The position numbers and the translations under genes are program-made. This document shows, in pieces, positions 53,702 to 56,560 of a stretch of DNA of 64,000 nt (positions are counted from its first letter, which is position 1; every line of letters starts with the position of its first letter). A model generated the notes under the pieces. That model searched no databases. It was not told the DNA's origin and saw only the letters and a list, made by a program, of their open reading frames with translations. This DNA comes from Escherichia phage DCP2: sequence record OR780565.1; one strand, written 5' to 3'.

Positions 53702-53788
53702 GCGAGAATGGTCAAATTGGTAAAGGCACAGCACTTAAAATGCTGCGGAATGATTTCCTTGTGGGTTCGAGTCCCACTTCTCGCACCA
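53702..53788 (+). tRNA. tRNA-Leu (anticodon TAA), CCA encoded
   Basis: Manual cloverleaf: gcgagaa/ttctcgc acceptor, anticodon loop cttaaaa, long variable arm, ggttcgagtcc T-arm. Confidence 0.8.
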
Positions 53789-53793
53789 AATTT

Positions 53794-53867
<74 letters not shown>

Positions 53868-53877
53868 ATTTAATTTA

Positions 53878-53951
53878 CTCCGTGTAGCTCAGTTTGGTAG
53901 AGCGCCTGATTTGGGATCAGGAGGTCCAAGGTTCAAATCCTTGTATGGAGA
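53878..53951 (+). tRNA. tRNA-Pro (anticodon TGG), no encoded CCA
   Basis: Manual cloverleaf: anticodon loop tttggga, ggttcaaatcc T-arm; 2 nt upstream of tRNA-Ser (dimeric precursor arrangement). Confidence 0.75.
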
Positions 53952-53953
53952 CT

Positions 53954-54043
53954 GGAGGCGTGGCAGAGTGGTTTAATGCACCGGTCTTGAAAACCGGCAG
54001 TCGCTCCGGCGACTCATAGGTTCAAATCCTATCGCCTCCGCCA
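53954..54043 (+). tRNA. tRNA-Ser (anticodon TGA), long variable arm
   Basis: Manual cloverleaf: ggaggcg/cgcctcc acceptor, anticodon loop cttgaaa, long variable arm, CCA encoded. Confidence 0.8.
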
Positions 54044-54047
54044 GTTT

Positions 54048-54124
54048 TGCTGATTTAGCTCAGTAGGTAGAGCAACTCACTTGTAATGAGAAGGTCGGCG
54101 GTTCGATTCCGTCAATCAGCACCA
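54048..54124 (+). tRNA. tRNA-Thr (anticodon TGT)
   Basis: Manual cloverleaf: tgctgat/atcagca acceptor, anticodon loop cttgtaa, ggttcgattcc T-arm. Confidence 0.75.
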
Positions 54125-54125
54125 A

Positions 54126-54199
54126 GGCCCTGTAGCTGGAAGGTTCAAGCAAGCGACTCATAATCGCCAGATGGTGGTTCAATTCCACCCAGGGCCACC
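54126..54199 (+). tRNA. tRNA-Ile/Met (anticodon CAT; probably lysidine-modified Ile as in T4)
   Basis: Manual cloverleaf: ggccctg/cagggcc acceptor, anticodon loop ctcataa. Confidence 0.75.
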
Positions 54200-54208
54200 A
54201 AATTAATT

Positions 54209-54296
54209 TGGGGAGTTATCCCGTAGAGGTAGCGGTGTGGACTGTAAATCCATTGTCATTGCGACTCGGGTGGTTCGACTCCACCACTCCCCACCA
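54209..54296 (+). tRNA. tRNA-Tyr (anticodon GTA), long variable arm
   Basis: Manual cloverleaf: ggggagt/actcccc acceptor, anticodon loop ctgtaaa, ggttcgactcc T-arm. Confidence 0.7.
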
Positions 54297-54300
54297 ATTT

Positions 54301-54375
54301 GGATGTGTAGCTCAATGGCAGAGCGATCGCCTGTTAAGCGATTGGTTATAGGTTCGAATCCTATCACGTCCGCCA
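54301..54375 (+). tRNA. tRNA-Asn (anticodon GTT)
   Basis: Manual cloverleaf: anticodon stem atcgc/gcgat with loop ctgttaa, ggttcgaatcc T-arm. Confidence 0.75.
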
Positions 54376-54489
54376 AATTTGTGACAACTGTCACATTAAT
54401 ATCTACTTGACGCGATTATAGGGGTTGAACTGATCACTCTTCTCTTAATTTCGTGTGAAGACATCTTGATTGTTGGAGTAGGTATTAAT

Positions 54490-54565
54490 GTGGCCGTAGT
54501 TCAGTTGGTAGAACTCGAGATTGTGATTCTCGTAGTCATGGGTTCGACTCCCATCGGTCACCCCA
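54490..54565 (+). tRNA. tRNA-His (anticodon GTG) with extra 5' G(-1)
   Basis: Manual cloverleaf: anticodon loop ttgtgat; 8-bp acceptor stem including G-1 opposite discriminator C. Confidence 0.75.
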
Positions 54566-54569
54566 ATTA

Positions 54570-54645
54570 CGGGGCATAGCTCAGAAGGAAGAGCAAGGAC
54601 CTTCTAAGTCCTAGGTCGTAGGTTCGATCCCTACTGCCTCGACCA
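54570..54645 (+). tRNA. tRNA-Arg (anticodon TCT)
   Basis: Manual cloverleaf: anticodon stem aggac/gtcct with loop cttctaa, ggttcgatcc T-arm. Confidence 0.8.
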
Positions 54646-54663
54646 ATTATAAGTGAGGAAAAT

Positions 54664-55014
54664 ATGAAAGGTAATGTTTATTTAGTAGTTCATGATTTAA
54701 CATTCTATTTTAATCATAATGATACTGTTATTTCTGAACGTGTAATTAATTTGCTTTATCAGCATGCAGATTATGTTTATGTCGAAAACGAATATGGTCA
54801 TTGGCAATTTCTCAAAAATCGTTCATTTGGTTTAGATGGTTACGAATATTTTGATCGTAAAGACCTTTTAGATACAATTCCGTTATCTACACAATATCAA
54901 AATCATAAGTCTTTACATAAATGCCGGCTAATTCGAAATGCTGAATCCGCGTATGAAGCAATTGATTTGTGGCGTAAACGCCGTGAATATATTGATTCTT
55001 TAAAAGAATATTAA
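54664..55014 (+). CDS. hypothetical protein downstream of the tRNA cluster
   Basis: 116-aa ORF with GAGGAAA RBS and ATG start. Confidence 0.55.
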   Translation: MKGNVYLVVHDLTFYFNHNDTVISERVINLLYQHADYVYVENEYGHWQFLKNRSFGLDGYEYFDRKDLLDTIPLSTQYQNHKSLHKCRLIRNAESAYEAIDLWRKRREYIDSLKEY

Positions 55015-55318
55015 GAAACCGGGTCGCTACCGGTAAGTCGTCGGACTGATGTTCCCTGGAGTATAGTTTCCTCCCACAGTTTTACTGTGTTCTGGCTCTT
55101 TACTATCACAGCAGAAACGGCGCACCGAATTATCGATTCGAGGAAATATCTTTGCCGTAAGCCGAGTAGCGTTTTTGACGGAACGTTCGGATATGGTCGA
55201 GATATGGCCTTTTAAAAATATTGAGTAGCGTCAACTACTTAATAACCGGGTTCGAATCCCGGCGTTTCGTACAAACACTTGCCTTAGCAGGTGGAACCCC
55301 GACAAGGTTGCCGCAAGG
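55015..55318 (+). ncRNA. GC-rich structured non-coding region; candidate small stable RNA(s)
   Basis: About 300 bp with no convincing ORF, above-background GC, and a tRNA-like T-arm (ccgggttcgaatcccgg); T4 has stable RNAs of unknown function near its tRNA cluster. Confidence 0.35.
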
Positions 55319-55349
55319 CTTAGCCCCGACCGAAAGGTTGGGGCTTTTT
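55319..55349 (+). terminator. 31-nt hairpin plus T-run (repeat copy 1)
   Basis: cttagccccgaccgaaaggttggggcttttt; identical copy at 55876-55906; followed by TATAAATA at 55352-55359. Confidence 0.65.
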
Positions 55350-55397
55350 GGTATAAATATTAGTATATTAAATCTACAAATTAAAACAGGAAATAAG

Positions 55398-55871
55398 ATG
55401 AAATCATATACTCAATTTTTAAATGAAGCGGTGTTAAATGAAGCATCTAGCACCGAAATTCAAGCTGTTGCAAAAGCTGCCATTGCCGCGGGTAAATATT
55501 CCTATAAAGATGCTTCTGATGAATCGCGATTCCAGTTTGCACGCGACATGAAAGCGGAAGGATTTACGGGAAATGCAGTTAGTATGGCCTGGAAAAGTTT
55601 AGTTGCTACTGGCGCTGCTTTTGCAAAGGCTTCGGGTAAACCTGCTCCTAAAGCAGATCCTAAAGCGGCACAAGAAAAAAATATCGTTAAAGGAATTATC
55701 GCTAAATATGAAGCTATCCTTAAAGAGCTTTTAGTAATCAAAACCGAAGGCCAAAAGTTAGCCCGTGCTTATAGTTTCAAAGATAATCCACATGTTCACT
55801 CTCTTGAGTATGTTGAAGACATCCAAAAAATTATTAAAGACCGCATTTGGTCTGCTAAACAAATCAAATGA
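55398..55871 (+). CDS. internal protein (CTS-bearing, IPII/IPIII-class)
   Basis: N-terminal MKSYTQFLNE resembles the MKTYxEF(L/I)xE capsid targeting sequence; late promoter upstream; the track ORF's 5' extension is rejected. Confidence 0.7.
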   Translation: MKSYTQFLNEAVLNEASSTEIQAVAKAAIAAGKYSYKDASDESRFQFARDMKAEGFTGNAVSMAWKSLVATGAAFAKASGKPAPKADPKAAQEKNIVKGIIAKYEAILKELLVIKTEGQKLARAYSFKDNPHVHSLEYVEDIQKIIKDRIWSAKQIK

Positions 55872-55875
55872 CATT

Positions 55876-55906
55876 CTTAGCCCCGACCGAAAGGTTGGGG
55901 CTTTTT
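55876..55906 (+). terminator. 31-nt hairpin plus T-run (repeat copy 2)
   Basis: Exact repeat of 55319-55349, directly after the IP gene stop. Confidence 0.65.
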
Positions 55907-55996: not shown

Positions 55997-56560
55997 ATGA
56001 AAACCTATGCCGAATTTTTAACCGAAGCAGCAAAATTACCATCTGAAGCAGATCTTACTAAAGTATTCTTCCAATTGGACCCAAAAGACCGCGGCGATTT
56101 TCTTAAGTGGAAAGCTAAAGCTATTGAAATGTACAACATCGATAATAGTTCTTTTACAATGAGTCAAGAAAATAAATTCAATAAAGCATTTTTCAAAATT
56201 TCTAAGAAATTGGCATCTGGCGCTCAGGTTCCTAAATCTGTGTTAGCTACTCCTGAACGCGCACCTGTTAAAATTTCTAAGAATATGTTCGACACTAAAA
56301 AATACGTTAATGCTTTGAATAAAGCTCTTGATGCATTGGATGATGCAAAGAAGGCAGCCCGCGATCTTCAAGACGTGTACACCGATTTTGACCGCAAAAC
56401 TAAAGGTTCTATTTCAAATAGCGAACGCAATAGTGTAAGTGTTTATTCTGATAGCCTTGATGTTCTTGGCGATGCGTATACTGAAATTAAAAATCGTATT
56501 AACACTGCATCTAAGCTAAAAGCTGCTGCAGAAGCTATAATAAGTAAACTAGGTAAATAA
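55997..56560 (+). CDS. internal protein (CTS-bearing, IPIII-like)
   Basis: N-terminal MKTYAEFLTE capsid targeting sequence; 187 aa; followed by ccctatc-taaat-gataggg hairpin plus T-run at 56569-56592. Confidence 0.7.
   Translation: MKTYAEFLTEAAKLPSEADLTKVFFQLDPKDRGDFLKWKAKAIEMYNIDNSSFTMSQENKFNKAFFKISKKLASGAQVPKSVLATPERAPVKISKNMFDTKKYVNALNKALDALDDAKKAARDLQDVYTDFDRKTKGSISNSERNSVSVYSDSLDVLGDAYTEIKNRINTASKLKAAAEAIISKLGK

Follow-up and report, generated by a model that had tools for sequence, protein, structure and literature searches.

The closest described counterparts of the element considered here, a non-coding stretch at positions 55015-55318 of a 64,000-nucleotide (nt) piece of Escherichia phage DCP2 (OR780565.1; the whole piece is called the window), are two small stable RNAs of phage T4. 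At the homologous site of T4 the order is tRNA-Arg, rnaD (annotated as 'small, stable RNA; species 2 RNA', 71053..71171) and rnaC ('species 1 RNA', 70908..71046). The precursor containing species 2 and species 1 RNAs is processed by RNase P and RNase E. The T4 transcript spans the transfer RNA (tRNA) cluster and stops past the gene of species I RNA, and from this precursor both the tRNAs and the species I and II RNAs are made (PMC2330249). Both RNAC and RNAD are classed as late in T4, and RNAC was seen on a Northern blot as a discrete, late-accumulating RNA (PMC9697503).

The stretch in the window very probably belongs to a region of two stable non-coding RNA genes, orthologs of T4 rnaD and rnaC, with a conserved trailer and then an intrinsic terminator behind them, an assessment that covers both the identity of the RNAs and their mode of production. 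These RNAs are already known in the T4 family, and the copies in this phage, which its sequence identifies as a Tequatrovirus (T4/T2-like coliphage), are ordinary members with unassigned function. What is added here is two folds supported by covariation, a pair of complementary invariant loops, a wider distribution, and a structural sense for a single-nucleotide polymorphism (SNP) described in phage BW-1.

Correspondence of the locus with T4 rnaD and rnaC

Positions 55011-55351 align with T4 rnaD, rnaC, the 3' trailer and the terminator, which bears out the proposal of an initial annotation of this DNA that the stretch is the equivalent of the small stable RNAs encoded near the T4 tRNAs. The rnaC homolog is identical to T4 rnaC at 138 of 139 positions, ungapped and over the full length, and the two are also alike in their place at the end of the tRNA unit and in the trailer and terminator that follow. 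There is no material difference between them, although the unit of this phage is parted from tRNA-Arg by a 116-amino acid (aa) open reading frame (ORF). The rnaD alignment contains 95 identical positions clustered in the first ~50 and last ~25 nt, the center being replaced. Shared with T4 rnaD are the 5' hairpin, the GUCGUCG/CGGCGCAC closing helix, helix P2, the internal-loop sequences and the place right upstream of rnaC, whereas the central ~45 nt form a different hairpin of the T2/BW-1 type and the 3' end reads CCG instead of CCA. The setting of the 5' end differs as well, as rnaD abuts the ORF stop codon here and tRNA-Arg in T4. Because the stop codon of the 116-aa ORF overlaps the first bases of rnaD, this 5' end cannot be made by tRNA-adjacent trimming in the present phage, unlike what is possible in T4. 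Trailer and terminator together match T4 at 76 positions in an 80-nt alignment.

Covariance models built for the two RNAs each recover a single copy in the window, with 165.8 bits (E 2.5e-41) for the rnaC model, R1, and 118.5 bits (E 3.9e-26) for the rnaD model, R2. A BLAST search of phage genomes found the stretch to be 100% identical in Escherichia phages YUEEL01, MLP2 and others; with a slightly narrower query, 1077 phage records match and 679 of these span at least 80% of the query.

The surroundings agree with the picture drawn from the alignment. Ten tRNA genes called by ARAGORN on the plus strand (53702-54645) precede the RNAs, as expected for a stretch that had been placed downstream of a tRNA cluster. 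The 116-aa ORF (54664-55014; phrog_3355, function unassigned; no Pfam match) lies between tRNA-Arg and the rnaD homolog, and 3' of it come ~340 nt without a credible ORF, closed by a strong intrinsic terminator. The GC-rich character noticed earlier is real: positions 55015-55318 have a GC content of 48.4%, compared with 35.9% for the whole window, 29.6% for the upstream ORF and 38.8% for the downstream ORF, and this is the same composition as that of the tRNA cluster (48.0%). The T-arm-like sequence, CCGGGTTCGAATCCCGG, is present at 55246-55262, and an exact copy of the 31-nt terminator repeat closes the stretch at 55319-55349. The coordinates of the initial annotation need correcting, as the RNA unit extends from ~55011, where its 5' start overlaps the stop codon of the 116-aa ORF, to the terminator end at ~55351. 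What had been read as a single structured stretch is structured and non-coding, but it is actually two RNAs plus a conserved 3' trailer (Table 1).

Table 1. Features of the RNA unit, in window coordinates
Feature	Position	Strand	Sequence	Basis or remark
rnaD homolog (T4 species 2 RNA)	55011..55126	+		aligns with T4 71053..71171; ~116 nt
rnaD 5' hairpin P1	55018..55034	+	ACCGG-GUCGCUA-CCGGU	all 5 pairs hold
rnaD closing helix	55037..55043 with 55118..55125	+	GUCGUCG with CGGCG(C)AC	7 pairs, 99.2% paired
rnaD helix P2	55050..55053 with 55110-55113	+	UGUU with AGCA	covariation only; absent from the minimum free energy (MFE) fold
rnaD apical hairpin	55075..55089	+	CACAG-UUUUA-CUGUG	G55087 pairs with C55077
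Spacer between rnaD and rnaC	55127..55132	+	GAAUUA	T4 alignment
rnaC homolog (T4 species 1 RNA)	55133..55271	+		aligns with T4 70908..71046; 139 nt
rnaC acceptor-like stem	55134..55140 with 55263-55269	+	CGAUUCG with CGUUUCG	covariation
rnaC long arm (D-arm position)	55141..55211	+		~70 nt; 13/27 pairs with compensatory change
rnaC 10-bp arm (anticodon-arm position)	55219..55244	+		7/10 pairs compensated
rnaC T-arm	55246..55262	+	CCGGG-UUCGAAU-CCCGG	5-bp stem, 7-nt loop with tRNA T-loop sequence
Conserved 3' trailer	55272..55318	+	CAAACACUUGCCUUAGCAGGUGGAACCCCGACAAGGUUGCCGCAAGG	predicted small hairpins
Intrinsic terminator (first copy of the 31-nt repeat)	55319..55351	+		hairpin 55322-55345, 10 bp, then UUUUU

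We weighed whether the region could encode protein after all, either through the 216-aa ORF at 55221-55871 or through a small ORF. Many GenBank records carry 'hypothetical protein' calls over the stretch, and most such phage records label it so or leave it blank, while the T4 record annotates RNA genes at this place. The longest ORF lying within 55015-55318 is 42 aa, in line with the earlier statement that no ORF here is credible. The 216-aa ORF begins at a TTG inside the T-arm region and lacks a ribosome-binding site (RBS); the plausible start of the downstream ORF is ATG 55398, located 6 nt past AGGA and giving 157 aa, so that the longer call is the implausible 5' extension it had been suspected to be. 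Stop-free stretches occur in all six frames, the frames shift between relatives through 1-nt indels, and no reading frame at 55015-55318 is conserved across relatives. A conserved ORF with an RBS, which the initial annotation had named as one observation that would overturn its reading, was looked for in relatives and not found. The variation across the RNA stretch is paired rather than codon-periodic. Taken against the database calls, these observations leave hardly any likelihood that a genuine protein is made from the stretch.

Covariation-supported folds of the two RNAs

The fold of rnaC was derived with RNAalifold from 16 distinct sequences that include several Tevenvirinae genera. The consensus equals the MFE fold of the single sequence, at -50.2 kcal/mol with z = -4.56 (0/200 shuffles), compared with z = -1.34 for the opposite strand, and it forms a four-arm cloverleaf. 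Compensatory changes occur in 22 of the 47 pairs and 97.3% of cells are paired; 0/500 shuffles were as good, and slid controls were all below 48% paired. The acceptor-like stem has 7 positions with two invariant U.U mismatches; one of its pairs, the third, is compensated, being A-U in nine sequences against G-C in seven. An A-rich linker separates the long arm from the 10-base pair (bp) arm. The T-arm follows the 10-bp arm after 1 nt and joins the 3' acceptor strand directly, as in tRNA, with one compensated pair, the third, that is G-C in nine sequences, U-A in six and U.G in one. All homologs have an invariant UACAA after the stem, and CCA is unencoded. The T-arm-like sequence of the initial annotation is thus real but is part of a complete acceptor/T-arm module, and rnaC as a whole is tRNA-shaped.

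Two loops of this fold match each other. All 16 distinct rnaC homologs have UUGACG (55175-55180) at the tip of the long arm, and the 6-nt loop of the 10-bp arm, CGUCAA (55229-55234), is invariant too and is the exact reverse complement of the tip, with a duplex energy of -7.5 kcal/mol. The probability of such a match by chance is ~7e-4, a post hoc figure that compares one 6-nt loop with the three 6-mers of an 8-nt tip. A loop-loop (kissing) contact between UUGACG and CGUCAA is plausible in the modeled fold. Scans of IMG/VR and metagenomes for loop variants bearing on this contact gave near-identical copies or unrelated hits only. That the loops might be read as codon and anticodon (GAC and GUC, aspartate), with a link to nucleases of the colicin E5 type that cut Y-G-U, is an idea only.

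Two other pairings in rnaC were considered and rejected. The acceptor partner ACGGAACG (55177-55184), used by a weak tRNA-Sec alignment, fails to pair in Karamvirus and Gelderlandvirus, and the 5'-end pairing has an A-U to G-C swap. The small hairpins AGGA-AAUA-UCUU and GGUC...GGCC are superseded by the compensated long-arm pairing.

Canonical tRNA and rnaC are alike in the four-arm cloverleaf, the 7-bp end stem, the T-arm GGUUCGAAUCC joined to the 3' acceptor strand and the place in tRNA arrays. The joint itself is that of a tRNA, a 7-position end stem passing directly into a 5-bp T-stem with a 7-nt T-loop. In contrast to tRNA, rnaC has a ~70-nt arm for the D-arm, a third arm of 10 bp with a 6-nt loop, two U.U mismatches in the acceptor stem and an unencoded CCA, and it is not called by tRNA finders; it shows neither a 3-4 bp D-arm nor a 5-bp anticodon stem with a 7-nt loop. 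The RNA cannot decode, because its 10-bp arm has a 6-nt loop and there is no D-arm and no encoded CCA.

Searches against known RNA families agree. ARAGORN calls no tRNA or transfer-messenger RNA (tmRNA) in 54646-55400. With Rfam 15 at gathering score only the ten tRNAs are found in the window, with the same outcome in relatives, and a permissive scan (E <=10) of 54900-55450 returned nothing relevant, the best sub-threshold match being tRNA-Sec (17 bits, E 1.4), which uses pairing that covariation rejects. A sub-threshold tmRNA_permuted match of 10 bits involves the T-loop only. Real tRNAs give weak alignments to the rnaC model over its whole length (21.8 and 20.1 bits). Both computational checks that the initial annotation had proposed have now been run: no Rfam 15 family exists for either RNA, and comparison with related phages supports folds for both rnaC and rnaD.

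Non-decoding RNAs that borrow from tRNA have been described elsewhere. The tRNA-like domain of tmRNA and the bacterial Y-RNA-like tRNA mimics (YrlA) belong to stable RNAs with an acceptor/T-arm-type mimic that is handled by tRNA enzymes, and the tRNA-like structures of plant RNA viruses, e.g., turnip yellow mosaic virus (TYMV), are viral elements that mimic the shape of tRNA to engage host tRNA enzymes. The ends of YrlA form a Ro-binding stem, not an acceptor mimic. Structures of the TYMV type are 3'-terminal parts of genomes that end in CCA and are aminoacylated, whereas rnaC is a free small RNA without an encoded CCA. Compared with tmRNA, rnaC lacks a tag ORF, pseudoknots, the G.U alanine identity pair, an encoded CCA and an Rfam tmRNA match. 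The 3' T-arm prompted us to consider a tmRNA or two-piece tmRNA, and this was rejected as there is no ARAGORN call, Rfam hit, encoded CCA, G.U pair or tag frame. More generally, a chargeable tRNA-like or tmRNA-like molecule taking part in translation is suggested by the acceptor-like stem on a canonical T-arm, the module of tmRNA and viral tRNA-like structures, but such a role is very improbable for rnaC. ARAGORN finds no tRNA or tmRNA and the Rfam tRNA, tmRNA and permuted-tmRNA models stay below threshold; invariant UACAA stands after the stem in place of an encoded CCA; the acceptor stem holds two U.U mismatches and no G3.U70, its third pair being A-U or G-C; and the 6-nt loop lacks U33, with no tag frame or pseudoknots apparent.

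The rnaD fold, obtained by covariation on 19 distinct sequences, has a 5' hairpin and a rod-like body that a long-range helix closes. Its three helices have 98.7% of cells paired, with 5/16 pairs compensated and 0/500 shuffles as good. Compensatory changes in P1 affect two pairs (A-U to G-C, and C-G to A-U in the copy from a ~150-kb phage), and Karamvirus keeps the P1 hairpin with other sequence. The closing helix, which is also found in the single-sequence MFE fold, has one G-C to C-G swap in L007, a record named Pseudomonas phage PsgM04F. In P2 the first pair is U-A in nine sequences versus A-U in eight, and U.G to C-G and U-A to C-G changes occur as well; the alternative CUG/CAG pairing of the MFE fold was dropped, as covariation favors UGUU/AGCA. 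The internal loops, GGACUGA opposite GAAA and CCCUG opposite AUCAC, are conserved. The apical hairpin differs wholly in sequence between lineages and is always kept as a hairpin.

This apical hairpin contains a mutation selected in the laboratory. When the T4-like phage BW-1 was evolved on the semi-permissive E. coli strain ECOR34 in a 2025 study, one common SNP, in 3/3 lines, fell inside rnaD (PMC12685909). It is a T-C transition at position 164264 and the only mutation common to the three adapted lines, which gained much virulence (PMC12685909). The fetched BW-1 record has the same gene order as the window, and the T on its plus strand is an A in the RNA, at the position equal to 55087. Taking the deposited record as the ancestor, the apical hairpin reads CACAG-UUUUA-CUAUG with a C.A mismatch, and the mutation changes the 3' strand to CUGUG and regains a C-G pair. 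The mutant allele is the window's own sequence, with G55087 opposite C55077. This suggests that the structure of rnaD matters for growth on some hosts.

Occurrence in relatives and flanking elements

Diverged copies were taken from annotated genomes and IMG/VR and represent five genera of Tevenvirinae together with a single unrelated group, whose phages have ~150-kb genomes. The rnaD and rnaC genes occur together in Tequatrovirus and Gaprivervirus (SP18). In Dhakavirus (VR5), rnaD is followed directly by trailer and terminator without rnaC. Karamvirus (Pet-CM3-4, ZX13) and Gelderlandvirus (Melville) carry rnaC flanked by tRNA-Trp and tRNA-Gly at distances of 2-8 nt, like another member of the array, and in both genera 5 A/U-rich nt shared with the spacer of Table 1 separate the tRNA-Trp CCA end from rnaC. 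A covariance model search placed a diverged rnaD-like RNA of Karamvirus right after tRNA-Asn, with the motif order hairpin, AAGUCGUCGG, CCCUG, CACAG, ACGGCGC. An rnaD copy is also present in the tRNA cluster of the unrelated ~150-kb phages of the phiWec188 type. Among the relatives, rnaD or rnaD-like copies begin 3-10 nt past a tRNA CCA end. A metagenome scan added only near-identical Tequatrovirus copies.

This distribution bears on the possibility that the RNAs are remnants, either decayed tRNA pseudogenes or GC-rich spacer carried along with the tRNA cluster. The tRNA-like composition, the T-arm motif and the recombination-prone, variable region would fit such an origin, but T4 and this phage share 138/139 positions of rnaC despite differing gene content around it, many compensatory changes are found, and the RNAs are kept in at least five genera. 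Decay of this kind is an extremely unlikely account of the locus.

Several further elements were observed in the relatives. The rnaD-like RNA of L007 (1497-1614) matches its counterparts in phiWec188 at 100% identity and in a record named Acinetobacter phage ABPW7 at 98%, and all these genomes are ~150 kb; the records may carry unreliable host names, or else the phages may be very close relatives. In three T4-like IMG/VR sequences (L021, L027 and L028), the ~65 nt between tRNA-Arg and rnaD hold an extra element, AAUGAAGACUAUUAUAUAGUCAAGCCGUCGUAUGAAGACUGAUUACCAGCAUUCACCGGCGCAACA, with the rnaD motif order (hairpin, AAGCCGUCG, GACUGA, AGCA, CGGCGCA) and without the central domain, which looks like a miniature rnaD paralog. 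Dhakavirus VR5 (L004, ~1290-1420) and L019 have an uncalled ~130-nt element between tRNA-Met and tRNA-Arg with two T-arm-like motifs, GCGGTTCGATTCCGTC and GGTGGTTCGAGTCCACC; it ends in GAACAAACAC, like the 3' flank of rnaC, and may be a further tRNA-like RNA. In Erwinia phage Cronus (L009, 1580-1800), ~220 uncalled nt past a stand-alone trailer-like element and just before tRNA-Met contain GGACUGAUCACCCCUCACUG, which is rnaD-like, and the T-arm-like UGGGUUCGAGUCCCAGCG; neither Rfam nor ARAGORN makes a call in this stretch. On the minus strand of metagenome contig JACCDR012148657.1 (L034, 1682-1789), an RNA-like stretch of ~110 nt lies behind a promoter-like TTGACA...TATAAT and ends in GGGGGUUCGAUUCCCCCCGUUACGUACAAUA, with tRNA-Glu and tRNA-Lys directly after it. 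The rnaC model gives this stretch a weak score (18 bits), and it is possibly a remote relative.

The trailer, CACUUGCC(U)U(A)GCAGGUGGAACCCCGACAAGG, shows almost no variation at any site that carries it. It stands after rnaC, directly after rnaD in Dhakavirus, after another element, and alone in Cronus, and in every case found it precedes a terminator. Trailer and terminator together fold with z = -3.99, and by the T4 annotation the trailer lies outside the mature RNAs. A role of the trailer as an antiterminator in competition with the terminator stem was considered and rejected, as variation is seen in the terminator sequence and not in the trailer.

The 31-nt repeat that forms the terminator, CTTAGCCCCGACCGAAAGGTTGGGGCTTTTT, has exactly two copies (55319-55349 and 55876-55906), with 0/100 shuffles giving such a repeat and none expected. 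Both copies are a 10-bp terminator-like hairpin with a U tract, and the record of phage fPS-65 annotates this element as a terminator. The ORF at 55398-55871 is flanked by the two identical copies, and a late-promoter-like TATAAATA is found at 55352-55359 after the first copy. This ORF and the one at 55997-56560 are paralogs, both assigned to phrog_2280 (function unassigned), and start with MKSYTQFLNEA and MKTYAEFLTEA, respectively, which we take to resemble the capsid-targeting leader of T4 internal proteins. The arrangement of two ORFs and terminators looks like shuffled gene cassettes. Within the tRNA array itself, a 114-nt uncalled gap between tRNA-Asn and tRNA-His (54376-54489) carries a GUGACA...UGUCAC hairpin and could hold another small RNA or remnant.

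Production and possible roles of rnaC and rnaD

The acceptor stem and T-arm of a tRNA are the part recognized by RNase P and the 3' trimming enzymes. Host tRNA-processing enzymes would cut out rnaC through its acceptor/T-arm module, and the RNA would be excised and kept stable through this tRNA shape, the acceptor-like stem being stacked on the T-arm. Selection at the RNA level is indicated by the rnaC loops, which are invariant while the stems vary, and by the presence of rnaD in unrelated ~150-kb phages.

For the mature RNAs we tentatively infer that they act in trans, imitating tRNA or RNA substrates by their structure and so binding a tRNA- or RNA-directed factor of the host, with an effect that depends on the host strain. 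On this proposal, rnaC would present a tRNA-like module and the two invariant complementary loops, UUGACG and CGUCAA, which may kiss. A different account confines the structures to a role in cis, in which they punctuate or stabilize the polycistronic tRNA transcript as processing entry sites, 3' protection and terminator, and the excised RNAs are inert by-products. The RNAs are always in or beside tRNA arrays, the trailer module always stands before the terminator that ends the unit, and a T4 partner or phenotype is unreported, all of which is consistent with a cis function. However, stems drift from genus to genus whereas loops and internal loops stay unchanged, a constraint beyond what a spacer needs, rnaD and rnaC occur independently and at different places of the arrays, the RNAs accumulate as stable species in T4 (PMC9697503), and a mutation in an rnaD stem was selected on a particular host. 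We regard the cis-only account as possible but doubtful. It is unlikely that the invariant loops (UUGACG, CGUCAA and the GUCGCUA of rnaD) act by pairing with phage or host messenger RNAs, tRNAs or ribosomal RNA and so alter translation or decay. Invariant loops on covarying stems, and stable RNAs that accumulate late, are what such pairing would lead one to expect, but 6-nt seeds are too short for target prediction, and the complementarity between the two rnaC loops speaks for a contact inside the molecule.

Several observations weigh against a structured, trans-acting rnaC and rnaD as described above. No partner molecule is known, and reviews give the roles of the T4 stable RNAs as unknown (PMC3014915). 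The MFE of rnaD has z = -0.21 and is no stabler than that of shuffles; with its fold energy unremarkable, the case for rnaD stands on covariation. Because both complementary rnaC loops are invariant, their pairing is beyond the reach of covariation, and RNAalifold shuts the tip of the long arm with U.G pairs, leaving only UGAC free. The annotated 5' end of T4 rnaC (U1) lies 1 nt outside the 7-bp stem, so that an RNase P cut at exactly that site is at most presumptive. The SNP of BW-1 could already have been in the starting stock, instead of having three independent origins. T4 deletions lacking the tRNA region grow on laboratory hosts, so that any role of the RNAs would be conditional.

A more specific version of the trans-acting proposal, in which rnaC and rnaD are RNA-based host-range or counter-defense factors, we consider improbable. 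In such a scheme rnaC would be a non-decoding tRNA mimic, locked by the UUGACG/CGUCAA contact, and would engage or divert a host enzyme directed at tRNA, for instance an anticodon nuclease or some other defense that targets tRNAs. The rnaD RNA would be a second decoy, and the stability of its hairpin would tune growth on particular E. coli strains, as the BW-1 mutation selected on ECOR34 suggests.

The locus is a textbook one, the species 1 and 2 RNAs having been described in the close relative T4, and the value of the present comparison lies in an annotation fix and in a handle on an old question. Two RNA families could be founded on the folds, and false ORF calls, of which the 216-aa extension is one example, could be cleared away. 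The base pair regained through the BW-1 SNP and the complementary loops of rnaC are concrete handles on the role of these RNAs and, if true, the counter-defense reading would assign a role to RNAs that have lacked one since the 1970s.

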